64,000 nt of DNA from Chloroflexia bacterium (GTDB lineage: Bacteria; Chloroflexota; Chloroflexia; QHBQ01; JADMIH01): NCBI GenBank assembly GCA_034437815.1, contig DAOTTC010000006.1:1616-65615 (forward strand), read 5' to 3'. Of this stretch, positions 2,478 through 63,125 are shown piece by piece (position 1 is the first letter of the stretch; each line of letters starts with the position of its first letter). The notes below the pieces were generated by a model, which saw nothing but the letters and a program-made list of their open reading frames with translations, had not been told where the DNA came from and ran no database searches. The translations under genes and the position numbers were made by a program.

Positions 2478-2604
2478 GGGGGCATGGCCCTCTGCACCCC
2501 TATTTTTGGGGTGGGGAACCGGGGCACCCCGCACCCACAGGTACCCCGGCAGGGGAGCACCCCTGCGCCCCGCTATTTATAGCCTTTGCCCGGATAACCG
2601 GTCT
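2478..2604 (+). repeat. Dispersed intergenic repeat, copy 1 (module C)
   Basis: ccccgcacccacaggtaccccggcaggggagcacccctgcgccccgctatttatagcctttgcccggataaccggt aligns with 51077-51165 and 38924-39012. Confidence 0.75.
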
Positions 2605-4075: not shown

Positions 4076-4293
4076 CGATTCCCTATTTGCCGGCGCTCCT
4101 AGTATAACCGGCGGAGCAACCACCCATATCGGTGAATCGTTACAATCCAAGCAATGCATCGCAGCGTAATTATCGAATGCGCATTCATGAGCGATGTCAA
4201 GGAATGGGGAAGGGCAAGCCGGGGAGGGCAAAGCTCTACTCAGACCCGTCCTGCTGTTGCACACAAAACGCCATGAAATAGCACGAGGCAAAT

Positions 4294-15222: not shown

Positions 15223-15428
15223 AGGGGCTGAACCAACCCCTGTCCGAGGTGGAGGGGTACTCCCCCTGCCCGCGGGTACTCCTTGGGTGCGGGGGTATAG
15301 GGGTATAAATGTCCCCCAGTCCCCCGCTTGTCTTCTCCCCACAGCGGGGTGCGGGGAGCGCCCCTGACAGGGGTATGGGGGTGTCCCCAGTTTCCCACCT
15401 CTCTCCCCACAATCTATAGCCTTCCTAT
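15223..15428 (-). repeat. Dispersed intergenic repeat, copy 2 (modules A+B+partial C, inverted)
   Basis: The reverse complement reads aggctatagattgtggggagagagg...tgtggggagaagacaagcgggggactgggggacatttataccc...ccccgcacccaaggagtacccgcgggcaggggg. This is collinear with 50895-51110. Confidence 0.75.
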
Positions 15429-15463
15429 GGGGAATTGGTATAAGACGGTAAGCAGGTATAATT

Positions 15464-19449: not shown

Positions 19450-19504
19450 GGCAATCCCTCCTTTAGCAACTCTTTTTGAGAAGATTGTAATGCTCACTAT
19501 CCAT

Positions 19505-19590
19505 AAAAGCTATGAATTGAGAGGGGAGAGGTGGCGGATCGGGGATACCCCATACCCTATACCCCGGCGGGGGTGCCCCCGATTTGACGC
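19505..19590 (+). repeat. Dispersed intergenic repeat, copy 3 (module A-like)
   Basis: aaaagctatgaattgagaggggagaggtggcggatcggggataccccataccc matches aggctatagattgtggggagagaggtgggaaactggggacacccccataccc (copy 2). Confidence 0.6.
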
Positions 19591-19814
19591 AGTACCAGCC
19601 TATCATATATCATTGCAAAAGTCGAGTATATCCATAGGCCATCCGGTCATAAAGATTACACCCTCATGCGTGACAGCGTGGGCACAGAGGCGCATAGCCG
19701 CGTGCCCCTGCTCAGCGCCAGCGTTTTGTATGCAACAGGGGGAGGGGGTTTGAGGAGAGATTCGCTCTCCCCGGCCCTCTCCGGCTGTCAGGCTATAATC
19801 GTCAGGCAATAGAC

Positions 19815-20799: not shown

Positions 20800-20862
20800 T
20801 CCCCCACCCGGAACCAGCCCCTTTGCCTCACCCTGCACCCCGCCATTTATTGCATCTGCCAG
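20800..20862 (+). repeat. Dispersed intergenic repeat, copy 4 (short module C fragment)
   Basis: ccctgcaccccgccatttattgcatctgcc matches cccctgcaccccggtatttattgcctgtgc. Confidence 0.45.
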
Positions 20863-24987: not shown

Positions 24988-25218
24988 GGGGATTCGTGGT
25001 GTCCCCAATGCCCCAACCCTCTTGCTAATACTGCAATTTACGTAATTCCGCTACTTCTCTTACGTAAACTGCTACAGAAATGGCGCTCACCTATTGACTC
25101 CATGTCGCTCCCTCTGTTATATGACCCTGTGTCATAACCGGGGAGGCAGGCGATTGCCGCTTGACGGCAGATAGTGGTGACCTGCCCCACGGCCCTTTTG
25201 CAAGGAGGGAGAACACAA

Positions 25219-32331: not shown

Positions 32332-35300
32332 CTAACCCTTGAACAGGCCCACTTCTTCCTGTTCTTGCTTCTTGCGCCTTTCCAATCTGGCGTCCTCTTC
32401 TCCCTCTTCTCCTTCGTCATCTTCCGGTGAAGATGCGGATACGCCTTTCCTCTGCGGACGCGTGGTGTAGTACTTGGACTGTGGGTGATGGGTCACCAGC
32501 GCGGCTGTGGACTGCTCAGGCTTGAGCACGTACCCTTCGGTGAGGCCCACCCCGATGGTCTGCTCGGCAGGCAGCACCCTGAGCAGTTTGACCTGCTCGG
32601 AGAGGTCCGGGCAGGCCGGGTAGCCCCATGAATAGCGCCTCCCCTGCCATTCGGGCAGGCCCAGCTCGCGCTTCACCAGCCGATGGGTCCATTCGGCCAG
32701 CGCCTCGGCCAGCGCCACGCTCAACCCGTGGATATAGTAGCCTTCCGAATAGTGGCCCTCTTTCTGCATCCTCTGCACGACCTCGGTGGCCCGGTCGCCC
32801 ATGGTCACCACCTGCAAGCCCACCACGTCCATGCGCCCCGAATCCACCGAGGCGAAGTAGTCCGACAGGCACAGGTGCTCGCGGTCGGGCTGGCGCGGGA
32901 ACGTAAAGCGCACCAGCGGCTCAGGCCGCCCATCTGTAGCCGCCCAACCACCGCCCTGCATGATTGCGGGGTCGTACACCAGCAGGTCGTTGCCCTCGGA
33001 CTGGCACGGGAAGTATCCATATATGACTTTCGGGGTAAGTATCTGCCCGGCGCGCATCTCTACCTGCATGCGCCGCAGGCGGGGCATCAGCTCTGTCTCC
33101 ACTGCCCGCTGGTAGTCGGCCCCGTGCAGTTTATGCGCGCCCCATGACAGCCTGAACAGCGACTTCAGGTCCAGACACTCGAACACCTCATCTAATGGGA
33201 TATGTCGCTGGTCCAGCACCCTGTAGCCCCAGAACGGCGGCACCGGTATGGGCACGTTGGGGTCTACGTTGGAGCGCACCACCGGCGCTCCCGCTTCGTC
33301 TGCGCCCTCCGGCAGGCCCGCCGCCTCCCGCTCGCGGAATATGTACGCCTCGCGGTGCTTCTTCTGGACGAACGCCTCGCGCCGCGCCGCGTCGGTGAGC
33401 GCGTCCATCACCTCCAGCCCCTCGAAGGCGTCTTTGCAGTAATACACCCCCGGTTCGTAGCGCTTGCCGTCCTCCACGAAGCCGATGCGGTAGCCGAACG
33501 GCCTGTTGATGGCCGCCCCGCCCACCAGCACCGGGAAATCCAGCCCGCGCCGGTACAGCTCCTGCACGCACAGGGGCATCTGTTTGGAGGTGGACACCAG
33601 CAGGGCGCTCAACCCGATGGCCGTGGCGCCCACCTCCACCGCTTTGTCTATAATTACGTTGATAGGCACCTGCTTGCCGAGGTCGTACACGGTGTAGCCG
33701 TTGTTGGTCAGGATAGTGTTGACGAGGCTCTTGCCGATGTCGTGCACGTCGCCGAACACCGTAGCCAGCACCACCTTGCCCTTGGTGTAGCCCTCTTTCT
33801 TCTCGAAGTACTTTTCGAGGTGGGCCACCGCCTTCTTCATGACCTCAGCCGACTGAAGCACGAAGGGCAGGATAAGCTCGCCCGCGCCGAACTTGTCGCC
33901 CACGTCCTTCATGGCAGGCAAGAGTATGTCGTTGAGCACCGATACCGCGTTCCGCGTTTTGAGGGCTTCCTCCAGCAAATCTTCGATGCCCTCTTTCTTG
34001 CGGTGCAGGATAGCGTAGTGTATCTTCTGCTCGACGGGCAGAGAGGCCCATCCTTCTTCCTCTCTGGCCCTGCGCCCCTCGCCCTCCGCCGGTTTGTGCG
34101 CCTCGAAGTAAGCGATGTATTCGGGCAGGGCGTTGGACTCGTTGTTGATCAGCCGCTCGGCCAGCAGGCGCTCCTGCTCCGGTATCTCGGCATACGGGGT
34201 GATGTGCACCGGGTTGACGATGGCGAGGTCCAGCCCCGCTTCCACGGCGCGGTGCAGGAACACCGAATTGAGCACGGCCCGCGCATAAGGGTCAATGCCG
34301 AACGACACATTGCTCACTCCCAGCACGGTGAGCGACCCCGGACACTCGGCCTTGACGCGTCGGATGCCTTCCAGCGTCTCCAGCGCCGAGCGGGCCAGCT
34401 CCTCCTGCCCGGTGGTCACCGGGAAGGTGAGCACATCGAATATCAGCGCGTCGGGAGACAGCCCGTACTCCTGCGTGGCGATATCGTATATGCGCCTGCA
34501 CACGGCCAGCTTGCGCTCGGCGGTGTGTGCCATACCCTCTTCGTCAATGGCAAGGGCCACCACCGCCGCGCCGTGCTCCACAGCGAGGGGCAAGACCGCC
34601 TCGATGCGCTCGCGCCCCCGCTCCATGTTGATCGAGTTGATGATGCCCCGGCCCGGATACACCTCAAGGGCGGCCTTCAGTGCCGAAGGCTCGGTGCTGT
34701 CGAACATAAGTGGGGTTTCCACCGCGAGGCTGAGCTTCTTGACCAGTTTGCGCATCATCTCGTCTTCATCGGTGCGCTCGGTGAGGGCCACCTGCACGTC
34801 CAGCACATGCGCGCCACCCTCCACCTGCTCGCGGGCCACCTGCACCACCCCATCGTAATCTTCGGCCAACAGCAGGCGCTTGACCTTGCGCGACCCCTGC
34901 GCGTTCACCCGCTCGCCCACCAGCAGGGGGGGTGGCTCCTGATGCAGGGGCGTAGCCCGGATGCCGCTGGACACGTGCGGCGGGAAGTAGGTGGGGCGTG
35001 CCCTCTGCGGTCGGTCGGTGCCAATGGCCTCCACCAGCGCGCGGATGTGTTCAGGGCCGGTGCCACAGCACCCACCCACCACGCTCACCCCGAACTCGGT
35101 CACGAACTCGTACAGGGCTTTGGCCATAGGCTCTGGCTGAAGAGGATACACAGCCTGCCCGCCCACGTTGATCGGCAGGCCCGCATTGGGTATGCACGAC
35201 ACCCAGCGCGTGCAGTTCTGGGCGAGGAAGCGGATCGGCTCGCGCATGTGCTCAGGGCCGGTGGAGCAGTTCAGCCCGATCACATCCACCGGCAGGGCCT

Positions 35301-35958
35301 GAAGGGTGGTCATGGCGGCCACGATGTCGGTGCCCAGCAACATGCGCCCCGACGTGTCCAGCGTGACCTGCGCCTGTATGGGCACCCATCGCCCGCTCTC
35401 TTTGAAATACTCGATGGCCCCGTTGATGGCGGCCTTCAGTTCGAGGATGTCCTGTGCGGTCTCGATAATCAACAGGTCGCACCCGCCTTCCACCAGCGGC
35501 TTGGCCTGCTCTTTATATATCTCCTTGAGCTGTTGATAGGTGATGTTGGACAGGGTCGGGTCGTCGGCAGATGGCAGGAAACCGGTAGGCCCCATAGAGC
35601 CTGCCACGTATCTGGGACGCGACGGGGTGGAATATTCATCGGCCAGCCTGCGGGCCAGCTGAGCGGCGGTGTAGTTCTGGTGGTACACCTCGTCGCCGAT
35701 GCCGTATTCGCTCAACTTGGGGCGGGTACTGCCGAAGGTGGCAGTCTCCAGCACGTCGGCCCCCGCTTCTAGATAACCTGAGTGTATCTCTTCAATGATG
35801 CGGGGGTTGACCACGCACAGATAGTCGTTACAGCCTTCCAGTTGAGGGCCGCCGTACTCCTCCGCCGTCAGGTTATACTTCTGCACCGAGGTGCCCATCG
35901 CCCCATCGAAGATCAGCACCCGCTCGCGCAAGCTCTCCAGATACGTCTTTCTGCTCAT
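32332..35958 (-). CDS. metH: Cobalamin-dependent methionine synthase
   Basis: Hcy-binding LIFDGAMGT, pterin-binding domain, B12 motif GDVHDIGK, and AdoMet-activation domain. Start ATG 35958 (MSRKTYLESL). Acidic C-terminal extension. Confidence 0.93.
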   Translation of the reverse strand: MSRKTYLESLRERVLIFDGAMGTSVQKYNLTAEEYGGPQLEGCNDYLCVVNPRIIEEIHSGYLEAGADVLETATFGSTRPKLSEYGIGDEVYHQNYTAAQLARRLADEYSTPSRPRYVAGSMGPTGFLPSADDPTLSNITYQQLKEIYKEQAKPLVEGGCDLLIIETAQDILELKAAINGAIEYFKESGRWVPIQAQVTLDTSGRMLLGTDIVAAMTTLQALPVDVIGLNCSTGPEHMREPIRFLAQNCTRWVSCIPNAGLPINVGGQAVYPLQPEPMAKALYEFVTEFGVSVVGGCCGTGPEHIRALVEAIGTDRPQRARPTYFPPHVSSGIRATPLHQEPPPLLVGERVNAQGSRKVKRLLLAEDYDGVVQVAREQVEGGAHVLDVQVALTERTDEDEMMRKLVKKLSLAVETPLMFDSTEPSALKAALEVYPGRGIINSINMERGRERIEAVLPLAVEHGAAVVALAIDEEGMAHTAERKLAVCRRIYDIATQEYGLSPDALIFDVLTFPVTTGQEELARSALETLEGIRRVKAECPGSLTVLGVSNVSFGIDPYARAVLNSVFLHRAVEAGLDLAIVNPVHITPYAEIPEQERLLAERLINNESNALPEYIAYFEAHKPAEGEGRRAREEEGWASLPVEQKIHYAILHRKKEGIEDLLEEALKTRNAVSVLNDILLPAMKDVGDKFGAGELILPFVLQSAEVMKKAVAHLEKYFEKKEGYTKGKVVLATVFGDVHDIGKSLVNTILTNNGYTVYDLGKQVPINVIIDKAVEVGATAIGLSALLVSTSKQMPLCVQELYRRGLDFPVLVGGAAINRPFGYRIGFVEDGKRYEPGVYYCKDAFEGLEVMDALTDAARREAFVQKKHREAYIFREREAAGLPEGADEAGAPVVRSNVDPNVPIPVPPFWGYRVLDQRHIPLDEVFECLDLKSLFRLSWGAHKLHGADYQRAVETELMPRLRRMQVEMRAGQILTPKVIYGYFPCQSEGNDLLVYDPAIMQGGGWAATDGRPEPLVRFTFPRQPDREHLCLSDYFASVDSGRMDVVGLQVVTMGDRATEVVQRMQKEGHYSEGYYIHGLSVALAEALAEWTHRLVKRELGLPEWQGRRYSWGYPACPDLSEQVKLLRVLPAEQTIGVGLTEGYVLKPEQSTAALVTHHPQSKYYTTRPQRKGVSASSPEDDEGEEGEEDARLERRKKQEQEEVGLFKG

Positions 35959-36112
35959 GAACCAGCTCCCTCCACTTCCTACTGATACCTGCTGTAACGG
36001 TGCCGGTATACGGAGCGCGGGTGTGTGGGCAGTGCCGTACCCCAACTACTGCGTGTGATGCGCATATTTGCTTTTGCCCACACAAAGGGCGTCAAACCGG
36101 CACCACTGATTG

Positions 36113-36277
36113 CTTAACAAAAAAGCCTCTCATGGAGAGGCCCTTGTTTTGCCCCTGAACTGAACGGGGGCCAAATCCTTCCCCATAATGGGCTGGGTGG
36201 GGCACCGCGCCTTTGCCGGTTGCCGGGTAGGTCAACGAGCCAGTCCTCTCGCTACCGCTCTCGATTTCTATGCACTT
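36113..36277 (-). promoter_or_regulatory. SAM-I (S-box) riboswitch with intrinsic terminator, leader of metH
   Basis: AUCGAGAGCGGUAGCGAGAGGACUGGCUCGUUGACCUACCCGGCAACCGG...GGUGCCCCACCCAGC matches the S-box core. Terminator gcctctc-cat-gagaggc plus T6 at 36116-36141. Confidence 0.8.
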
Positions 36278-36344: not shown

Positions 36345-36472
36345 CCCATCCAATATCCAATAGGGGAAAAGGTAAAGAGCCGGGGACACTTATACCTCTA
36401 CCCCGCACCCAGAGGGCACCCGCCGGCAGGGGGCTTAGATCAGCCCCCTGCCAATCCCCGATTGTTGGTAGA
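36345..36472 (+). repeat. Dispersed intergenic repeat, copy 5 (end of module B plus module C variant)
   Basis: ggggacacttatacctctaccccgcacccagagggcacccgccggcaggggg...ccccctgcc...gattgttggta. Confidence 0.7.
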
Positions 36473-38557: not shown

Positions 38558-38766
38558 TGTTACCTTCTGTCCAACGGATAGTGCAGGCCGGGCTGTAGGC
38601 CCAATGTGGCAAGAGGCCAGACCCGGTGGGTGCGCCTCTTGCCTCAGCTATTATACCCTTTTGGCCGGCACCGGCCAATGCCAAGCCGGTACTAGTAATT
38701 ATAGGACTTTATTCTAAGGCTCAGTCTCCGCCGTGAATCTCGCCAAGCCGTGTTATACCGATCCAC

Positions 38767-38793
38767 CCATAGTGCCGATTTATGGCACTATGG
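38767..38793. other. 10-bp-stem hairpin upstream of the ABC operon
   Basis: ccatagtgcc gatttat ggcactatgg. Confidence 0.4.
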
Positions 38794-38799
38794 GTGCAA

Positions 38800-39012
38800 T
38801 AGAGGGAAGGGATTTGGAGAGGGCTGCGTCCTCCTCGGCCCTTCTCTTTCCTCAACATGTTGCATGAATCTGCAGTAAGGCTATAAATTGTGGGGGGAAG
38901 ACAAGTGTCCCCCACTTGTAACCCCGCACCCCCACGCCCAGAGGGTACCAGTCGGCAGGGGCGCTCCCCTGCACCCCGGTATTTATTGCCTGTGCTCGGA
39001 TAATTGGTATTA
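38800..39012 (+). repeat. Dispersed intergenic repeat, copy 6 (modules Z+A+C, full 3' end)
   Basis: ggagagggctgcgtcctcc...ttgcatgaat...aaggctataaattgtgggggg...ccccgcaccc...caggggcgctcccctgcaccccggtatttattgcctgtgctcggataattggtatta. Confidence 0.8.
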
Positions 39013-40044
39013 GAGATGTCGCTTCACAGCATATACTGTGAGGATTGCGCCTCTGCCAGCGAGGGCCATCGCGGGCACATACAACAGGCTGAGCAGGCCC
39101 AGCGGCACCGCTGTAGCCAGCGCCAGCAAAGCCTGACCACGACCAACCTCGCGGCTGCCCCTGCCGCTGCCGTCGAGCAGTTTAGCCGAGCGCGTCCTCA
39201 GCAGGTCGTACAGAAGGTTATGGGGCAACCCCAACTTGTTCTGCACCGTCTGCACGAAGCCAAAGAAGCTGTATTCGGGGGCAAACCACTCACGGCGCAG
39301 CACTTGGAGGCCCACCCCGCGCAAAGCCCCCTCCAGAGTGCGAGGCGTGAAATGGGTGAGATGCCTTGGCACGTCCAAATGGAACCAGTGCCTCCGGCCC
39401 CAACGCGCTTCCCAACTCCCAAAATTGGGCACGGACAGCACTAACATGCCACCCGGTTTGAGCAGGCGGCTCACTTCACTCAGAGCGGCGAGCGGGCAGT
39501 GCATATGCTCCAGCACATGCCACAGGATGATGAGGTCAAACTCGCCACTGCGGAACCCGATTTCTTCCAACCTTGCGGTGAACACCGGTAGTTTAAGGTA
39601 GTGGCGGGCGTAGGCCGCTGCATCTTCGCTGAGTTCGGTGCCAACCGCTTCCCAGCCGCGCTGTCGAAGCTTGTTGAGCAACAGGCCCCGCCCGCAACCT
39701 ATATCGAGCACTTTACCCGGCGCAACCCCGCGCACAATCCTCGCTGCGCGATACGAGTACAGCCTGTCCAGCGCCCACTCTACCGGAGAGGCAAAGCGCC
39801 TGCCCACGCCATAATACCTCCGGGGGTAGTACCGCACAATCTCTTCCGGCGAAGGGGCGGGCTCGGTCACGTATAGCCTGCATACCGAACAGCGGGCAAC
39901 AACGAACCCATCGCCTGTTATGTAGTCGCGAGCCGAAAAGACCGGCTCGGTCTGGTGGTCGGCATCATGGCACCGCGAGCCAAGGGTAGCTTGCCTGTCG
40001 TTCATGTGAGCATCGGTCCTGAAGTATTTTGGTGTGGTGAGCAT
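39010..40044 (-). CDS. Class I SAM-dependent methyltransferase with N-terminal Cys-rich segment (start uncertain)
   Basis: VLDIGCGRGLLL motif I, DLIILWHVLEH, and N-terminal CSVCRLYVTEP. Confidence 0.72.
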   Translation of the reverse strand: MLTTPKYFRTDAHMNDRQATLGSRCHDADHQTEPVFSARDYITGDGFVVARCSVCRLYVTEPAPSPEEIVRYYPRRYYGVGRRFASPVEWALDRLYSYRAARIVRGVAPGKVLDIGCGRGLLLNKLRQRGWEAVGTELSEDAAAYARHYLKLPVFTARLEEIGFRSGEFDLIILWHVLEHMHCPLAALSEVSRLLKPGGMLVLSVPNFGSWEARWGRRHWFHLDVPRHLTHFTPRTLEGALRGVGLQVLRREWFAPEYSFFGFVQTVQNKLGLPHNLLYDLLRTRSAKLLDGSGRGSREVGRGQALLALATAVPLGLLSLLYVPAMALAGRGAILTVYAVKRHL

Positions 40045-40084: not shown

Positions 40085-41950
40085 TCACAGTTCCGCCGAG
40101 CGGTCGGCTATCTTCCTCTGGACCATGGCAAGGAACTCGACGAAAGGCAGGTCGTTCTGCTGGCTGCCATCGCGCCTGCGGACAGACACCGTCTCGCCTT
40201 CCATCTCCTTGTCGCCCACCACCAGCATGTAGGGCACCTTCATCAATTGGGCGCGGCGTATCTTGGCGTTCATGCGGTCGTTGTCCACGTCGGCCTCGGC
40301 TCGGATGCCCAGCCCACGCATATTCTTTTGCAGACGCAGGGCATAATCGTTGTGGTGTTCCGAGATAGGTATGACCCTCACCTGCTCAGGCGACAGCCAC
40401 ACCGGGAAGTTGCCCGCGTAGTGCTCCAACAGGAAGCCGATGAAGCGCTCGTGCGTGCCCAGCGGCGCGCGATGGATCACCAGAGGCATCTCTTCCTTAC
40501 CATCGCGGTTCATGAAGGTCAGGTTGAAGCGGGCCGGCTGGGCGAAGTCCACCTGATTGGTAGCCAGCGTGAACTCGCGCCCGATGGCGCTCCATATCTG
40601 CACGTCAATTTTGGGTCCATAGAAGGCCGCCTCGTCCGGCACCTCCACGAACGGCACGTTGCCATCGCGCATCGCCTTGCGCACCATGTCTTCGGTCTTG
40701 AGCCACAGGTCGCGATTGTCCACGTATTTCTTGCCCAGCCCTTTCGGGTCGTGCAGGCTGAGGCGCATCAGGTAGCGCTCGATGCCAAACAGCCGGAAGT
40801 AGTCCAGATACATGGCTATCACGCCCATGAACTCGGTCTCGAACTGCTCTTCTGAGCAGTAGATGTGAGCGTCGTTCATGTGCAGGCAGCGCGAGCGCAT
40901 GATGCCGAACAGCTCGCCGCTCTTTTCATAGCGATAGCAGGTGCCGTACTCGGCCAGCCGGATGGGCAGGTCTCGGTAACTACGCGGTTTGGACGCGTAT
41001 ATCTTGTGGTGGAAAGGGCAGTTCATCGGCTTGATGTAATAGCGCGCGCCCTCCAGCTCCATGGGTGGGTACATGCTTTCGGCGTAGTAGGGCAGATGGC
41101 CGCTTCGGATGAACAGGTCCTCCTTGGTGATGTGAGGCGTGAGCACACGCAGATAACCAGCCTGAAACTCCCTCTCCTTTGCCAACTTCTCCAGTTCCTC
41201 GGCTATGACTGCCCCGGCGGGCAGCCACAGGGGCAGGCCCGGACCCACTTCTTCGTCAAAAGTGAAGATCTCGAGGTCCTTGCCCAGCTTGCGGTGATCG
41301 CGCTTGCGGGCCTCTTCCAGCATGTGCAGGTAAGCTTCGAGGTCCCTGCGGCTCTTCCACGCCGTGCCGTAGATGCGCTGGAGCATGGGGTTGTGCTCGT
41401 CCCCGCGCCAGTACGCACCGGCCACATTGAGTAGTTTGAAGGCATCGGGCGGTATCTGGCCGGTGTGCTCCACGTGCGGCCCCCGGCACAGGTCTTCGAA
41501 GCCGTCGTGACGGTAGGTGCTGATTTTGGCCGGGCCACGCACCTCGTTGCCGTACTCATCAACCTCGCCTCTGGCAAGGCCTTCTATCAGTTCGAGCTTA
41601 TAGGGCTGGTCCTTGAACAGCTCACGCGCCTCTTCGGGGCTGACCTCTCGGTAAACGAACGGGTACTTGCCCGCGATGATCTGGCGCATGCGTCTTTCGA
41701 TTTTCTCAAGGTCTTCGGGCGTGAAGGTGCGAGGCCTGCCGCTTTCGTCCCTGCCCAGATCGAAGTCATAGTAAAAACCATGCTCAATGGGCGGACCGAT
41801 GCCCAGTTTGGCGTCGGGGTACAGCTCAAGCACGGCCTGAGCCATCACATGCGCCGCGCTGTGCCTGAGCCGGTACAGTTCGTCTTTCTCTTTCTGCTCG
41901 GCTTGCCCAACGTCCTGCTCTTGCTCTTGTTCTTGTAGAGTATGGCTCAT
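40085..41950 (-). CDS. thrS: Threonine--tRNA ligase
   Basis: RHSAAHVMAQA editing/second-additional domain, class II motifs, and HRAPLGTHERFIGFLLEHYAGNFPVWLSP. RBS GGAGGTGAG. Confidence 0.94.
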   Translation of the reverse strand: MSHTLQEQEQEQDVGQAEQKEKDELYRLRHSAAHVMAQAVLELYPDAKLGIGPPIEHGFYYDFDLGRDESGRPRTFTPEDLEKIERRMRQIIAGKYPFVYREVSPEEARELFKDQPYKLELIEGLARGEVDEYGNEVRGPAKISTYRHDGFEDLCRGPHVEHTGQIPPDAFKLLNVAGAYWRGDEHNPMLQRIYGTAWKSRRDLEAYLHMLEEARKRDHRKLGKDLEIFTFDEEVGPGLPLWLPAGAVIAEELEKLAKEREFQAGYLRVLTPHITKEDLFIRSGHLPYYAESMYPPMELEGARYYIKPMNCPFHHKIYASKPRSYRDLPIRLAEYGTCYRYEKSGELFGIMRSRCLHMNDAHIYCSEEQFETEFMGVIAMYLDYFRLFGIERYLMRLSLHDPKGLGKKYVDNRDLWLKTEDMVRKAMRDGNVPFVEVPDEAAFYGPKIDVQIWSAIGREFTLATNQVDFAQPARFNLTFMNRDGKEEMPLVIHRAPLGTHERFIGFLLEHYAGNFPVWLSPEQVRVIPISEHHNDYALRLQKNMRGLGIRAEADVDNDRMNAKIRRAQLMKVPYMLVVGDKEMEGETVSVRRRDGSQQNDLPFVEFLAMVQRKIADRSAEL

Positions 41951-41961
41951 TTCTCACCTCC

Positions 41962-42256
41962 AAACAAAAAGCCCCTCGCCCGATATCGGGACGAGAGGCA
42001 TCGAATACACCCTCACGTGGTTCCACCCGAGTTCGGTGCCCCATGCCGATTCGTACATGGGGAGCACCCTCGTTGGGGCCGGTAACGGGGCCAACCGATA
42101 CCGCATACTCACCCTGCACGGGCTTTCTGCGATATGGCTCACAGGTGGTTTTCGCCGGTTGCGATGCGATAGCGGCTCTCAGCCTTGGGCCTCTACTCTC
42201 TGTCGCCCGCCAGACCGGCTACTCGTCCTGATCAACGCCTGTTGAATCTTAGGTTG
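41962..42256 (-). promoter_or_regulatory. T-box leader (Thr) of thrS with terminator
   Basis: Stem I AGAGAGUA elements and a candidate specifier GAAA-ACC-A. T-box sequence CGGGUGGAACCACGUGAG. Terminator cctctcgtcccg-atat-cgggcgagggg plus T-tract (41962-41999). Confidence 0.75.
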
Positions 42257-42291: not shown

Positions 42292-42349
42292 GTAGCTGTA
42301 CCTGACATCCAATCATAACTGATGCACGTTCATGCATGATGTTTAGAAA

Positions 42350-42463
42350 AGGGGAGGGCTATGTCCTCCCCAAACCCCCTATTGGATGAATATGCATCGG
42401 GGACCAAACCCACCACTATGGGGGAAGCAAGGAGCGGGGATATGTGTACCCCGCACCCACAGA
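42350..42463 (+). repeat. Dispersed intergenic repeat, copy 7 (module Z plus start of module C)
   Basis: ggggagggctatgtcctccccaaaccccc...ggatgaatatgcat...taccccgcacccacag. It is truncated just before the yitJ-like promoter. Confidence 0.65.
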
Positions 42464-42517: not shown

Positions 42518-42706
42518 GTAATCGAATAGAAATCGAGAGCGGTAGCGAGAGAACTGGCTCGTTGACCTACCCGGCAACCGGCAAAGGCGCGGTGCCCCAC
42601 CCAGCCCCGCATTGAGCACGGGGGAAGGATTCGGCCACCCACTCCAACATCAGGCATCGAGTCGGGCGGCAAACCGGGTGCCTCTCCGTGTAGAGGCACT
42701 TTTGTT
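42518..42706 (+). promoter_or_regulatory. SAM-I (S-box) riboswitch with intrinsic terminator, leader of the Hcy-methyltransferase/MTHFR gene
   Basis: The aptamer core is 80/81 identical to the metH leader. Terminator gtgcctct-ccgtgt-agaggcac plus TTTTGTT (42678-42706). Confidence 0.8.
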
Positions 42707-42749
42707 ATCCGCGACCTTTCCCCACTTCAAGTATGTGGAGGATAAAGAT

Positions 42750-44747
42750 ATGGATAGTGCCAGCACGAGCACGAGCACCAATACCGATACCGGCACCACC
42801 GCTTCGCGTGAACAGCACCCCTTCCTCATCAGGTTGCAACAGCCCGGACCGATAATATGCGACGGGGCGATGGGTACGATGCTGTACTCGATGGGCGTGC
42901 CCGCTAACAGTTGCTTCGACGAGTGCAACCTGTCCCAACCCGAACTGGTACGCAAGATCCACGAGGCCTACATCCATGCAGGTGCCGAGATCATAGAGAC
43001 CAACACCTATGGGGCCAACCGTTTCAAACTGGCCGCCTACGAATTGGCCGACAAGGTGCACAAGATAAACATTCGGGGCGCAAGGCTGGCACGCGAGATG
43101 CGCGAGGTGAGCGGCCAGCCCGTATTCGTGGCCGGAGCCGTGGGGCCTTTAGGCAAGCCAATACAGCCGGTGGGCCTGATCCCGGTGCTCGAAGCGCGGG
43201 CTATATTCAGAGAGCAGATCGAGGCCCTGCTTGAGGGTGGGGTGGACCTAATCATCCTTGAGACGTTTCGAGACCTTGAAGAGATGCGTCAAGCCCTGAT
43301 CGCCACCAGAGAGGCCTGCGACCTGCCGGTGATTGCCCAAATGACCTTCGCAGAGGACGGGCGCACCCAGATGGGCAACACCCCGGAAGAGATAGTGCGT
43401 GTGCTGGAAGAGCTGGGGGCCGACGTGATAGGCGCCAACTGCTCGACAGGCCCCCAGCGCATGGCTCAGGTGGTGGAGCAGATGTCCCACTTTGCCCATC
43501 GGCCCCTGTCTGCCCTGCCCAACGCAGGCTGGCCAGAGATGGTGGGCGGGCGCATCGTATACGTGTCCACCCCCGACTACATAGCCCAGTTCGGCAAGAG
43601 GATGGCCGAGGCCGGAGTGAAAATACTAGGGGGGTGTTGCGGCACCACCCCGGCACACATCAAGGCGCTCGCCGACTGCCTGCGCGAGCTTCGGCCCACC
43701 GGCACCGCACCATCGGACAACGGCACGCAAACCCCAACACAAACCTTGATCAGAGAGACCATTCGGGTGGAGCACCACGAGGCGCCCATGTTGCGCGAGG
43801 CCGCGCCGCTGGAAGTAAGCGAAGAACGCGAGTCGGTGCACACCTTACCCGGATCGTTCGGCTGGAAGCTGGGCAAAGAATTCGTGGTGAGCGTAGAGCT
43901 GGCTCCCCCACGGGGCATCAACCCGGCCAAGGTGCTGGCCGGAGCGCACATGCTCAAGGCCAGAGGGGTGGACGCCGTCAACGTCACTGACAGTGCGCTG
44001 GGGCGGGCGGCCATGAGCGCGCTGGCCGTGTCCTACCTGATCCGGCTGGAGGTGGGTCTGCCTGTCATCCCCCACTTCACCACCCGCGACCGCACGTTGA
44101 TGGGCATTCAGGCCGAACTGCTGGGCGCGCATGCCATGGGCATACGCCACATCCTCGCATTGACGGGTGATGCCCCCAACCCTGTGGACCGCATGGGGTC
44201 GTCGGCGGTGTTCGATATAGACTCCATAGGGCTGATCAAGCTTTTGACCAAGCTCAACAACGGCGAGGACCTCGCAGGCAACAGCATCGGCGGCACCACC
44301 GACTTTCTCATCGGGTGCGCGTTCAACCCCACGGCGCGTGATCTGCCCCTTGAGCTTGACAGGCTGGGCCAGAAGCTGGAAGCAGGCGCGCACTTTGTGA
44401 TGACCCAGCCGGTGTACGATCTGGAGCTTGTGGAGCGCACGCTGGAGGTCGCCAGACAGTTCAGGGTGCACATCCTGCTGGGCATACTTCCCTTGCAGAG
44501 CCATAAGCACGCCGAATTCTTGCACAACGAGGTGCCGGGCATCGTCATCCCTGATTTCGTGATGGAGCGCATGAAAGAGGCCGGGCCTAATGGCCGGCAG
44601 GCCGGCGTGGAGATGGCTCAGGAAATACTCCGGTACGCCTACAATCGCTACGCCGGCGCGTATCTGATGCCTTCGTTTGGCCGGTACGAATTGTGCGCCA
44701 GCGTGCTGGATGTGCTGCCCCGTTTCGCGCCTACCATATCAGCCTGA
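42750..44747 (+). CDS. Bifunctional homocysteine S-methyltransferase / 5,10-methylenetetrahydrofolate reductase (YitJ-like)
   Basis: ATG 42750 after GGAGGA; the track ORF from 42612 would run through the terminator. N-terminal ICDGAMGTMLY...GGCCGTTPAHI, and a C-terminal MTHFR domain (VSVELAPPRG...). Confidence 0.85.
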   Translation: MDSASTSTSTNTDTGTTASREQHPFLIRLQQPGPIICDGAMGTMLYSMGVPANSCFDECNLSQPELVRKIHEAYIHAGAEIIETNTYGANRFKLAAYELADKVHKINIRGARLAREMREVSGQPVFVAGAVGPLGKPIQPVGLIPVLEARAIFREQIEALLEGGVDLIILETFRDLEEMRQALIATREACDLPVIAQMTFAEDGRTQMGNTPEEIVRVLEELGADVIGANCSTGPQRMAQVVEQMSHFAHRPLSALPNAGWPEMVGGRIVYVSTPDYIAQFGKRMAEAGVKILGGCCGTTPAHIKALADCLRELRPTGTAPSDNGTQTPTQTLIRETIRVEHHEAPMLREAAPLEVSEERESVHTLPGSFGWKLGKEFVVSVELAPPRGINPAKVLAGAHMLKARGVDAVNVTDSALGRAAMSALAVSYLIRLEVGLPVIPHFTTRDRTLMGIQAELLGAHAMGIRHILALTGDAPNPVDRMGSSAVFDIDSIGLIKLLTKLNNGEDLAGNSIGGTTDFLIGCAFNPTARDLPLELDRLGQKLEAGAHFVMTQPVYDLELVERTLEVARQFRVHILLGILPLQSHKHAEFLHNEVPGIVIPDFVMERMKEAGPNGRQAGVEMAQEILRYAYNRYAGAYLMPSFGRYELCASVLDVLPRFAPTISA

Positions 44748-47161: not shown

Positions 47162-48700
47162 ATGGATGCTGATCTGAAAGACCGGCAGGATACGCTTTCC
47201 CCGCTCCATATGCTTTTGCAGGCGGCCGGCGATGTCGCCTCGATACCCACAGGCACGCCACCCGTGTCCTCTCCCCGGCACGAAGGCCTCAGGGACGCCC
47301 CTGCCTATGACAACCTGCTGGCGTGCATAAGGTGTGGGGCCTGCCTGCCGGTTTGCCCCACCTACAACACCGACCTGCTGGAGGTACAGTCGCCCCGCGG
47401 CAGGGTGCAACTCATCCGGCAGGTAGAAGAGGGGTTGCTCGAACCGTCCGAGACCTTTCTTGAGCATATGTACCATTGTCTGGACTGCCGCGCCTGCCAG
47501 AGCGTGTGCCCCACGGGTGTGCGCATAGGCGAACAGGTACTGCGGGCGCGGGTGCAGATGGAACGGGGCAAAAGGCAACCACTGATCAAGAAACTGGGCC
47601 TGCGGTTCGCGCTGGGCGACCAGAGAAGGCTGGAACTGCTGATGTTGCCTATCGCAGTGTACCAGCGCTTGGGGTTGCAGTGGCTGGTGCGCAAAACCAG
47701 ACTGTTGCACCGAATTCTGCCCGCCCGTCTGAAGGTGCTGGCCTTCATGGAAGAGTTGCTGCCGGAACGCATACCCTTCCGGTCGCTGAGGCAACAGATC
47801 GCCACGGTCGTGCCCGCGCAGGGCCAGAAGCGCTACCGCGTGGGCTTCTTCCTCGGGTGCGTCATGAGCACCATGTTCGCCGAAACCTCATCCGCCACCG
47901 TGCGGGTGTTGAGTGAGAACGGATGCGAGGTGGTCACGCCCAAGACCCAGAAATGCTGCGGCGCGCCCCACGCCGAAGAAGGGGACTTCGAATCGGTCAG
48001 GGAGTTCGCCAAGCACAACATAGCCCTGTTCGAGCGGTACAATGTGCAATACATCATCTGCGACTGCGCGGCGTGCGGTGCACAAACTAAAGAGTACGCC
48101 GAACTGCTGCACGATGAGCCGGGGTGGGCCGAGCGGGCCGCACACTTCAGCGCCAAAGTGCGCGACATCATGCAATTTCTCGCCGAGATACCTTTGAAAG
48201 AACCGACCGTCGAAGTGGCCCGGCGCGTCACATACCATGAGGCATGCCACCTGTGCCACGCGCAGAAAGTGCGCCGTGAGCCGGTGCAGGTGCTCAGCAA
48301 AGTGCCGGGACTGCGAGTCGTGCCGCTCAACGAGAGCGACATGTGCTGTGGCAGTGCGGGGATTTACAACCTGACACACAACGAGCGCTCCATGAAGATA
48401 TTGGACCGCAAGATGGCGAACGTCGAGGCCACCGATGCAGACGTGGTGCTAGCGGGCAACCCCGGCTGTATGTTGCAGCTTGACTACGGGCGGCGCATGG
48501 TAGGCTCGGATAAGCCTGTGCTTCACCCGGTGCAGGTGCTCGACGCCGCCTACCGAGCCGCGCACCACACCGACTTCCACGGCGTCCATTCGGGTCGGCA
48601 CTTGAGGGGCCGGGGCGGGCGTGTGCTGGCCGTGGCAGCCGATGGCAAGACCAAAGTTGTGCTGTCACAGCACCAAGGTCAACGAGGGGCACTCCCCTGA
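47162..48700 (+). CDS. (Fe-S)-binding oxidoreductase subunit, GlcF/heterodisulfide-reductase-like, with unusual C-terminal extension
   Basis: CIRCGACLPVCPTY and CLDCRACQSVCPTGV 4Fe-4S motifs, and two CCG-type Cys-rich domains. The last ~5 codons run into a repeat copy. Confidence 0.75.
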   Translation: MDADLKDRQDTLSPLHMLLQAAGDVASIPTGTPPVSSPRHEGLRDAPAYDNLLACIRCGACLPVCPTYNTDLLEVQSPRGRVQLIRQVEEGLLEPSETFLEHMYHCLDCRACQSVCPTGVRIGEQVLRARVQMERGKRQPLIKKLGLRFALGDQRRLELLMLPIAVYQRLGLQWLVRKTRLLHRILPARLKVLAFMEELLPERIPFRSLRQQIATVVPAQGQKRYRVGFFLGCVMSTMFAETSSATVRVLSENGCEVVTPKTQKCCGAPHAEEGDFESVREFAKHNIALFERYNVQYIICDCAACGAQTKEYAELLHDEPGWAERAAHFSAKVRDIMQFLAEIPLKEPTVEVARRVTYHEACHLCHAQKVRREPVQVLSKVPGLRVVPLNESDMCCGSAGIYNLTHNERSMKILDRKMANVEATDADVVLAGNPGCMLQLDYGRRMVGSDKPVLHPVQVLDAAYRAAHHTDFHGVHSGRHLRGRGGRVLAVAADGKTKVVLSQHQGQRGALP

Positions 48701-48830
48701 CGGCGGGTACCCTTTGAGTGCAGGCACACCCCTTTTGCATATTCATGCAAGATGCTGGGGAAGGGAAAGCAAGGGGAGGTCGGGGAGGGCTGTGCCCTGC
48801 CCAAACCCCACCTCCCTTTATTGCATACGA
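48686..48830. repeat. Dispersed intergenic repeat, copy 8 (inverted module C fragment plus modules Z in mixed orientation)
   Basis: ggggcactcccctgacggcgggtaccc is the reverse complement of gggtacccgccgtcaggggagtgcccc. Also ttgcatattcatgcaa, ggggagggctgtgccctgcccaaacccc, and ccctttattgcat. Confidence 0.65.
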
Positions 48831-48864
48831 AGTGCCATGAAATAGCACTAGCTCCCTAAAGGGG

Positions 48865-50871: not shown

Positions 50872-50894
50872 CGTCCGCTTTATACCAGTTCTCC

Positions 50895-51168
50895 GCAGAA
50901 AGGCCATAAATTGTGGAGAGAGGACAAGTAGGGACTGGGAACTGGGGGACACCCCCATTTGTGGGGAGAAGACAAATAGGGACTGGGAGACTGGAGGACA
51001 TTTATACCCCCGCATCCGAAGGGTACACGCCGGCAGGGGAGTGCCATGGGGGCGGGCAGTGGCGGCGGCTGTGGCAGATGTCCCGCACCCACAGGGTACC
51101 CGCCGGACCGGGGAGCGCCCCTGCACCCCGGTATTTAGCACCTTTGCTCGGATAATTGGTATTACGGC
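50895..51168 (+). repeat. Dispersed intergenic repeat, copy 9 = longest exemplar (modules A, B x2, C)
   Basis: A: aaaggccataaattgtggagagagg. B: ...gggactgggaactgggggacaccccc / tgtggggagaagacaaatagggactgggagactggaggacatttataccccc. C: tcccgcacccacagggtacccgccgg..ggggagcgcccctgcaccccggtatttagcacctttgctcggataattggtattacgg. Confidence 0.85.
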
Positions 51169-53519: not shown

Positions 53520-53650
53520 CACAGCCCCCCTCTTCCATGAATGGAGAGGGGAGGGGGAGGAGGAAGGGGTGATTATGCAGTATGTAAAGAGGTTCCGGCA
53601 ATAAGCGAGGGTGCAGGGGCACCCCCGTCAGGGGGTGTGGGGTGGGGGTG
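53520..53650 (-). repeat. Dispersed intergenic repeat, copy 10 (modules Z plus C variant), abutting the tRNA-His fragment
   Basis: The reverse complement reads ...ccccctgacgggggtgcccctgcaccctcgcttattgccgg... and ...cattcatggaagagggggg. Confidence 0.65.
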
Positions 53651-62628: not shown

Positions 62629-63050
62629 AATCGTTCATCCTCCTCCCAGCCAAATTTTGCACTGATAAGAGGCCCAACCCCAGAGAGGCGCTTGTAACAA
62701 ATTCTGGAGAGACGATACCCCAATACTGAGGTCAGGCCGTGTTTGCTTTGTAGCCCGCTGAGCAGTGCCCCCTCGTGGAAGTCCACCGTCAGCAAGCTGT
62801 TCTGCTCCTGCCCCACCGTGCCCAGCGCACCACCCGCACCCAATGAGGCACCCGGCACTATGCTGTCGGGGCTGATGAAGCGTGCAAGGCCGGGGTCGTA
62901 ATACCTTGCGTGGTAATACAGAAGGCCTGTGCCGTCCAGCCTCTGCCCCGTGTAGTTGAGCGTGGTGTGCCCTATGCCTATGCCCCCAGTGCGTACCTTG
63001 CCCCACGGGTCGTACTCCTGCTGAGACACCACCTGCCCGCTGGCGTTATA
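62604..63050 (-). pseudogene. 5'-truncated (orphan) RHS core end plus ~80-aa C-terminal toxin domain of unknown family
   Basis: YNASGQVVSQQEYDPWGKV...YTGQRLDGTGLLYYHARYYDPGLARFISPDSIVPG is the RHS-associated core terminus. The frame is closed by TAG at 63051-63053, where a repeat copy begins. Confidence 0.75.
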
Positions 63051-63125
63051 CTATTTATCCAAGCAGGGGTGGTAAATATCAGGGTGCAGGGGTGCTCTCC
63101 TAACATAGCCTTTCCCCCACGTATT
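63044..63125 (-). repeat. Dispersed intergenic repeat, copy 11 (module C, 3' end abutting the truncated RHS gene)
   Basis: The reverse complement ggagagcacccctgcaccctgatatttaccacccctgcttggataaatagtataacg matches gggagcgcccctgcaccccggtatttagcacctttgctcggataattggtattacg. Confidence 0.7.

Follow-up and report, generated by a model that had tools for sequence, protein, structure and literature searches.

A MITE family with TNA target duplications accounts for dispersed G/C-tract-rich repeats in a Chloroflexia genome

Short G/C-tract-rich sequences recur between the genes of a Chloroflexia draft genome (3.15 Mb in 166 contigs, 87% complete, ∼60% G+C), and the locus that drew attention to them raises a simple question: are they a mobile element, structured RNAs, regulatory sites or a chance likeness among G/C-rich spacers? 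The stretch of 64,000 nucleotides analysed here (C6:1616-65615) is called the window below and is the frame of all coordinates given without a contig. An initial annotation had listed 12 such sites in it, with an exemplar at 50895-51168 and four modules (A, B, C and Z) that seemed to recombine; a non-autonomous mobile element (MITE or REP-like), a family of structured RNAs and the end of an IS200/IS605-type element had been offered as possible origins. Our best explanation is that the repeats are a MITE family with terminal inverted repeats (TIRs) and TNA target site duplications (TSDs), mobilised in trans by a DDE transposase of the IS5/PHIS type, and we put the probability of this reading at roughly 0.88.

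That the repeat family is real is established far beyond chance. An iterated nhmmer profile of module C gave 290 genome-wide matches with a best E-value of ∼1e-21, 51 of them near full length, 106 covering the 3′ two-thirds only and ∼41 the 5′ half only; the shared modules were recovered by gap-free repeat finding as well. With the 274-bp exemplar as query, BLAST returned 197 pieces across the genome. Merging the module-C matches with the matches of our end profiles yielded 216 loci, or 0.7% of the assembly. The description of the copies as mostly intergenic in the initial annotation also stands: 253 of the 290 module-C matches (87%) lie outside genes according to our own crude gene calls. Relative to the downstream gene, 86 copies have the same and 91 the opposite orientation; convergent spacers are enriched for copies (39 observed versus 21-26 expected) and divergent spacers are depleted of them (19 observed versus 26-50 expected). 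Such a distribution is usual for tolerated selfish DNA, unlike that of promoters.

The 12 listed sites are not all members. Six are significant genome-wide (2527-2608, 15246-15444, 38868-39013, 48685-48724, 50878-51165 and 63044-63104) and a further two reach significance when the window alone is searched (36401-36451, E 2.9e-5; 19487-19580, E 0.002), whereas two are marginal (20800-20862 and 53520-53650, E ∼0.05) and two have no match of the family. A profile search of the window gave no match at the trace near 25000, and 42350-42463, likewise without a match of the main family, adjoins a partial copy of family Z at 42320-42379, with a 30-nt overlap. The exemplar itself actually spans 50883-51161; the outer 12 nt of its left end had been missed, and for this reason the TIRs had escaped notice. 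Its parts, including two tandem internal units with (GGGACTG)-type G-tracts and a G-rich insert between the left TIR and the core hairpin, are placed as follows:

50880-50882: TTA, left TSD of the exemplar, the same as the right flank 51162-51164
50883-51161, plus strand: exemplar, complete MITE copy of 279 bp (profile matches, flanks)
50883-50917, plus strand: left TIR TACCAGTTCTCCGCAGAAAGGCCATAAATTGTGGAG, which includes module A (endL profile, E 8.6e-10)
51108-51123, plus strand: core palindromic hairpin CCGGGG-AGCG-CCCCTG (consensus CAGGGG-N4-CCCCTG)
51130-51161, plus strand: right TIR GGTATTTAGCACCTTTGCTCGGATAATTGGTA, the 3′ part of module C (endR profile, E 8e-13)
51162-51164: TTA, right TSD of the exemplar

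In the exemplar, module A is adjoined on its outer side by TTATACCAGTTCTCC, and the 3′ end of the element, GGATAATTGGTATTA, is the reverse complement of this sequence. Across the genome, termini with the motif GGANAATTGGTA fall into two kinds: those of module C have …TTTATCGCCTTTGCTC before the motif, and the others have …CAATTTATAGCCTTTCTAT, which is module A reversed. The consensus sequences of left and right ends are identical at 23 of the 29 outermost positions, giving imperfect TIRs of ∼30 bp that pair with each other in predicted folds. Module A is the inner part of the left TIR, and the ‘sharp 3′ boundary’ of module C is that of the right TIR.

Reading outward from both ends, the flanks of 162 profile-defined termini are T (∼90%), N (A/T-biased), A (∼85%) and G (∼55%): the element inserts at C|TNA|G and duplicates 3 bp. 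Identical 3-bp flanks were found in 15 of 29 left-right pairs (TTA in 8, TAA in 6, TCA in 1) versus 7.1 expected by shuffling (P ∼1e-4); most of the non-identical pairs differ by one base, and about half of the TSDs are intact. The flanks are direct (TTA with TTA, TAA with TAA) while an extension of the TIRs would pair TTA with TAA, hence they are TSDs. Twenty-eight of these complete pairs measure 79-359 bp, most commonly 120-145 bp; the remaining one, a left-left pair of 683 bp, is probably not one element. A canonical copy of ∼120-145 bp has the order left TIR TACCAATTCTCCATAGAAAGGCTATAAATTGTGGGG, a G-tract spacer that carries GGGGACT-type heptamers in the alignment of complete copies, a GGGGGACACCCCC hairpin, the CAGGGG-N4-CCCCTG hairpin and the right TIR GGTATTTATCGCCTTTGCTCGGATAATTGGTA. 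We saw no coding sequence by eye within the 28 complete copies. Eighteen complete copies of 105-178 nt have predicted folds that are TIR-paired hairpins with a mean z of -4.0, and it is this pairing of the TIRs that makes the fold strong. Small, non-coding, with inverted ends and a 3-base target duplication, the family is a MITE family. Besides the exemplar, the window holds one more complete copy and several fragments:

2527-2602, plus strand: fragment with the core and a decayed right TIR (…GGATAACCGGTC, then TGA), no left end
15246-15440, minus strand: fragment with the left TIR and internal units, no right TIR; terminus at 15440, flank TAA at 15441-15443
19496-19580, plus strand: decayed remnant with the left TIR (E 0.002 within the window)
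36401-36451, plus strand: core fragment only (CCCCGCACCCAGAGGGCACCCGCCGGCAGGGG…)
38756-39009, plus strand: second complete MITE copy, its left TIR split by a nested family-Z copy
38753-38755 and 39010-39012: TTA, the TSD of copy 38756-39009
48685-48724, minus strand: core fragment abutting the family-Z copy 48733-48850
63049-63104, minus strand: fragment with the hairpin and right TIR; terminus at 63049, flank at 63046-63048

The right TSD at 39010-39012 is at the same time, on the minus strand, the TAA stop codon of a methyltransferase gene (39010-40044). Preferential insertion at stop codons was considered and rejected: 10 of the 162 termini (6%) lie at stop codons versus 7.5% of the TNA triplets outside coding sequences, which is no enrichment.

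How, then, did the impression of freely recombining modules arise? Modules A, B and C belong to a single element, and Z is a MITE family of its own. Four things make the element look modular: its two ends are symmetrical, an internal unit of ∼50-100 nt has been duplicated in tandem, copies have decayed to fragments, and the second family is nested in copies or lies beside them. Because the ends are similar, the module-C profile also matches left ends in reverse, which produces ‘inverted’ copies. In the alignment of complete copies, those of 217-359 bp have two or three tandem repeats of the internal unit; the exemplar has two units at 48-nt spacing plus a unique G-rich insert, and one subfamily has an extra CCCGCACCCAGAGGGTACCCGCCGG segment, which is the 5′ part of module C. 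The variable loop reported for the core hairpin (agcg, agca or cgct) can be explained in a similar way: to a large extent the variants are the same palindrome read from either of the two similar ends, as the loops form reverse-complement pairs (AGCG/CGCT, AGCA/TGCT, AGTG/CACT). Counting compensatory versus broken cells for each stem pair, we found the six pairs of the core hairpin 82-93% paired, with 0-3 compensatory versus 19-43 broken cells per pair. There is no covariation in the core hairpin, which is conserved by sequence.

Module Z is a separate, unrelated MITE family with a TA duplication. Its 112-nt consensus has 285 genome-wide matches, 84% of them intergenic, with the ends and TIRs GTGCATATTCATG…CATGAAGTAGCAC and a GGGGAGGGC-N4-GCCCTCCCC hairpin. 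In the window it is present at these positions:

4176-4286: family-Z copy
19720-19781: partial family-Z copy
38772-38875, minus strand: family-Z copy nested in the main-family copy 38756-39009, flanked by TA at 38770-38771 and TA at 38876-38877
42320-42379: partial family-Z copy
48733-48850: family-Z copy

The uninterrupted consensus of the main-family left TIR, CCATAGAAAGGC, has a single TA at the point of Z insertion and serves as an empty site for Z; with TA on both sides of the nested copy, the TA has been duplicated. Z is nested at the same TA of a main-family left TIR in two copies, 38756-39009 and C164:9231-9513.

Some other features of the window may be recorded here. An 82-nt inverted repeat (36190-36271 and 42526-42607) has arms that are 99% identical and 6.2 kb apart. 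The first gene downstream of an arm is metH (32332-36045, minus strand), and the other arm precedes a homocysteine S-methyltransferase/MTHFR fusion gene (42612-44747); the stretch 36170-36270 scores 36.5 bits against the SAM-I riboswitch model (E 6e-7), short of its gathering score of 44.4. The arms look like two near-identical SAM riboswitches on two genes of the methionine cycle, and the near-identity of these putative riboswitches suggests that they were recently duplicated or homogenised by gene conversion. Upstream of a 621-aa gene at 40085-41950, the minus strand carries a T-box leader at 41984-42244 (RF00230, 95.6 bits).

In addition to the ends, the duplications and the target motif, movement has left its traces in a paralogous empty site, in the absence of a copy at an orthologous locus and in the nesting described above. 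For the copy C137:7303-7464 we reconstructed the empty site from 60 nt of left flank, one TTA and 60 nt of right flank, and ∼25 other loci match this query straight across the junction. All 10 aligned copies of this host repeat are uninterrupted there (…ATGCA-TNA-GTTATGA…, with T(T/C)A in most), and the junction is a paralogous empty site. At the orthologous level, one copy lies between rpoB and rpoC, 17 nt ahead of the latter (C74:15997-16140), and is missing from that spacer in all seven same-genus genomes aligned. The flanking genes of the exemplar are adjacent in no same-genus genome, with identity of at most 78%, and among public contigs the only other one with its flanking gene is the identical source contig (100%). 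The rpoB-rpoC spacer is itself variable. In each same-genus relative it measures ∼90 nt and is filled by a palindromic array of 7-nt repeats peculiar to that genome (units such as TTACGAA or CAGTGAC); here it holds a different hairpin and the MITE, and the spacers cannot be aligned while the flanking genes are 75-85% identical. Several same-genus genomes have ∼850-930 bp inserted between rpoB and rpoC; the one insert examined (G011, C75:40650-42150) contains two small ORFs of 161 and 102 aa.

How widely is the element distributed? As far as the genomes compared here tell, our subfamily is unique to its own genome: BLAST searches of 40 relatives gave few partial matches only, and a search of 185,579 species genomes for the exact right-TIR 20-mer found it in none but this one. 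Other MITE families, whose interiors differ, share the outermost 13-16 nt and the TNA duplication; their termini read TACCAAT(T/A)A, and they are found, patchily and with TNA duplications, in three other Chloroflexia lineages. Genome G033, which together with G027 and G031 belongs to another family of the same order, has a very homogeneous 91-nt element with 216 ends; G027 has 27 ends and G031 three. In G033 this MITE is also seen in head-to-tail tandem arrays at 94-nt spacing, each unit being followed by TAACAC or TAAGTC, suggesting that a copy, once inserted, was duplicated locally in tandem along with its target. The complete single-contig genome G152 (5,723,298 bp), from another family of the class, has an element of 110-150 nt with 54 ends; the TSD is perfect in nine of its 10 pairs, TCA and TGA being among the triplets, and the element was not found in nine relatives of G152. 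The same genome carries six copies of an IS of 1,465 bp with a 461-aa DDE_Tnp_1 transposase and ends CTCGACTTTATCCAT…, flanked by 5-bp direct repeats of CTNAG type (CTCAG, CTGAG, CTTAG, CTAAA, CAAAG); this IS is unrelated to the TACCAAT-end MITEs of G152. A related MITE is also carried by a Chloroflexaceae MAG (DAOUBZ010000171.1). Among 251 genomes of the class, appreciable copy numbers were found only in G000, G027, G033 and G152, which represent three genera, next to the three ends in G031. In each case a TACCAAT-end family is abundant in one species and missing from its congeners, and this patchy distribution fits bursts of a mobile element. It is possible, if rather unlikely, that the TACCAAT-end MITEs form an orphan superfamily that was cross-mobilised by a transposase with different ends, or moved by an enzyme so far not recognised as a transposase, and repeatedly seeded by horizontal transfer into naive genomes.

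What could have moved these elements? A DDE transposase, supplied in trans, would bind both TIRs and excise the element, which would then be inserted at C|TNA|G, where repair of the staggered cuts would give the 3-bp TNA duplication. Longer copies such as the 279-bp exemplar have grown by internal tandem duplication of the ∼50-100 nt unit and by expansion of the heptamer G-tracts. The IS1031 and IS427 groups of the IS5 family in ISfinder have a TNA-type target signature, and the known ends of this family start with GA or GG, not with TA. For PIF/Harbinger elements TWA targets, and for NuwaII the C|TNA|G target, are documented (PMC4482050). The C|TNA|G signature is shared with both groups, and judged by this target signature the driver is most likely an IS5/PIF-Harbinger (PHIS) superfamily transposase. 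One IS with IS427/IS1031-type ends, a DDE_Tnp_1_2 transposase and a C|TTA|G duplication is present in G031, a relative of the same order (L030).

No matching transposase was found in the genome itself. The initial annotation had seen no transposase in the window, which agrees with the part of the window's ORF list that we scanned, and the assembly (87% complete) has no match to PF01609, PF13359 or PF13586 (DDE_Tnp_1, DDE_Tnp_4 and DDE_Tnp_1_2) and none to PF01797. PF01609 was matched in 25 of 26 genomes searched, the present assembly being the sole exception; IS copies are often lost from metagenome bins. The single rve gene of the assembly is IS3-like and without matching ends. An autonomous element with TACCAAT ends was found neither in our assembly nor at those loci for IS5-, IS4-, Harbinger- and rve-type transposases that we inspected in relatives, where the IS ends seen (GAACTCATTTGG…, GAGCTTATCC…, TAGATAAGG…, CTCGACTTTATCC…) are unlike the terminus TACCAATT of the present family. 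Inspection of 20 regions around TACCAAT ends in G033 and of 23 regions in the complete genome G152 revealed no autonomous partner, 10 single-match regions in other genomes were all chance matches in coding sequence, and a scan of viral contigs with a 14-base end pattern found no related element, one candidate end pair lying inside a 923-aa ORF.

By their anatomy the repeats have what is expected of MITEs, namely a size below ∼600 bp without coding sequence, TIRs, a TSD of fixed length and dispersal in many copies with empty sites; a related autonomous IS with similar TIRs was found neither in this genome nor in G152, nor at any IS locus of the order that we inspected. Many accepted MITE families are orphans, hence a missing autonomous partner does not exclude membership. 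Of the marks of PHIS elements, the 3-bp duplication at C|TNA|G was found, while matching TIRs and a host transposase were not. The copies are ∼80-85% alike, half of the duplications are decayed, most loci are fragments and no gene for a matching transposase is present: the family is old in this genome, and it is probably no longer moving.

Other explanations have to be weighed against a MITE family. Copies that are short, GC-rich, hairpin-bearing and mosaic-looking, that lie mostly between genes and are enriched between convergent ones, would suit REP/BIME-like palindromes or remnants of IS200/IS605 ends (PATE-like), spread by Y1 enzymes (RAYT or TnpA) acting on single-stranded hairpins. We consider this extremely unlikely because the Y1 domain PF01797 gave no match in this genome and did give matches in control genomes, TIRs of ∼30 bp and 3-bp TSDs are foreign to REPs and to IS200/IS605, and the conserved GTAG/CGTC head is lacking; the REP-like option and the derivation from an IS200/IS605 end, both raised initially, are given up on these grounds. 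The third option raised, that selection on the hairpins maintains the copies as structured RNAs or as signals at the RNA level (sRNAs, terminators, stabilisers of mRNA), is very unlikely as well. The 6-bp GC stem is conserved, the folding is strong (mean z -4.0), and with copies after genes and one in the spacer of the rpoB-rpoC operon some are certainly transcribed. However, Rfam models match none of the repeats in the window at the gathering threshold, nor the exemplar region when it is scanned permissively, broken cells far outnumber compensatory ones in every stem pair (19-43 versus 0-3), orientation to flanking genes is random (86 versus 91), the hairpin is not followed by a U-tract, pairing of the TIRs accounts for the strong fold, and the family is missing from 24 other species of the genus.

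Dispersed regulatory DNA, that is promoter modules or operator sites for a dimeric regulator, might be suspected from the sequence TGgTATTAg at the very end of the element, which resembles an extended -10, and from an inverted pentamer in the right TIR that is seen by direct reading (TTATC-N11-GATAA). This, too, has hardly any probability: every second copy faces the 3′ end of a convergent gene, the divergent, promoter-bearing spacers are depleted, a -35 at usable spacing is missing, and the sharp boundary is a transposon terminus followed by the duplicated TNA. The right end was also considered as a promoter by itself and is ruled out by its random orientation to downstream genes. Finally, weak matches of G and C runs are all that is seen at 20800-20862, 53520-53650 and ∼25000, as would be expected if G/C-tract-rich spacers had converged by chance and no element existed. 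For the core family this is refuted by full-length matches with E ∼1e-21, ends defined to the base, TSDs and an empty site, and we give it practically no weight. The MITE option, for which ends, TSDs and an empty site are now defined, is the one that holds.

In conclusion, the repeats are a new MITE family of the ordinary selfish-DNA kind, with a PHIS/IS5-type target signature and no autonomous partner found. We found no report of MITEs in Chloroflexia in the literature searched, and the family documents, for this class, non-autonomous elements that target C|TNA|G in the IS5/Harbinger style. For annotation it means that ∼0.7% of the genome and many odd G/C-tract spacers are two intermixed MITE families, whose copies should not be taken for regulatory RNAs, REP elements or promoters. 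The species-specific bursts (in this genome, G033 and G152) offer markers for strain typing and for spacer turnover in these filamentous bacteria.

Among known systems, the Tourist-like MITEs of PIF/Harbinger (PHIS), including NuwaII with its C|TNA|G target (PMC4482050), resemble the present family in their small non-coding form, their TIRs, a 3-bp TWA/TNA duplication in a C…G context, high copy number near genes and the frequent lack of an autonomous partner with identical ends. They are eukaryotic, however, the termini of our family (TACCAATT…) differ from theirs, and we found no DDE_Tnp_4 element with these ends. The IS1031, IS427 and ISL2 groups of the IS5 family and their MITE derivatives share the TNA duplication at CTNAG-like sites and TIRs of 20-35 bp, but the ends of the IS5-family elements examined start with GAAC or GAGC and ours with TACC, and no member with matching TIRs was found. 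REP/BIME sequences of Enterobacteria and Pseudomonas, which are RAYT-associated (PMC3733652), are likewise mosaic GC-rich palindromes that often lie between convergent genes; unlike our elements they are without TIRs or TSDs and tied to a Y1 RAYT gene, which this genome does not have. A last comparison concerns the Correia/NEMIS elements of Neisseria. Correia elements are not known to have a cognate transposase; they duplicate TA and carry a functional promoter and IHF/RNase III sites, whereas the present family duplicates TNA. They and other orphan bacterial MITEs (reviewed in PMC10969869) are, like our elements, intergenic repeats of 100-160 bp bounded by TIRs, present in hundreds of copies and co-transcribed with neighbouring genes.
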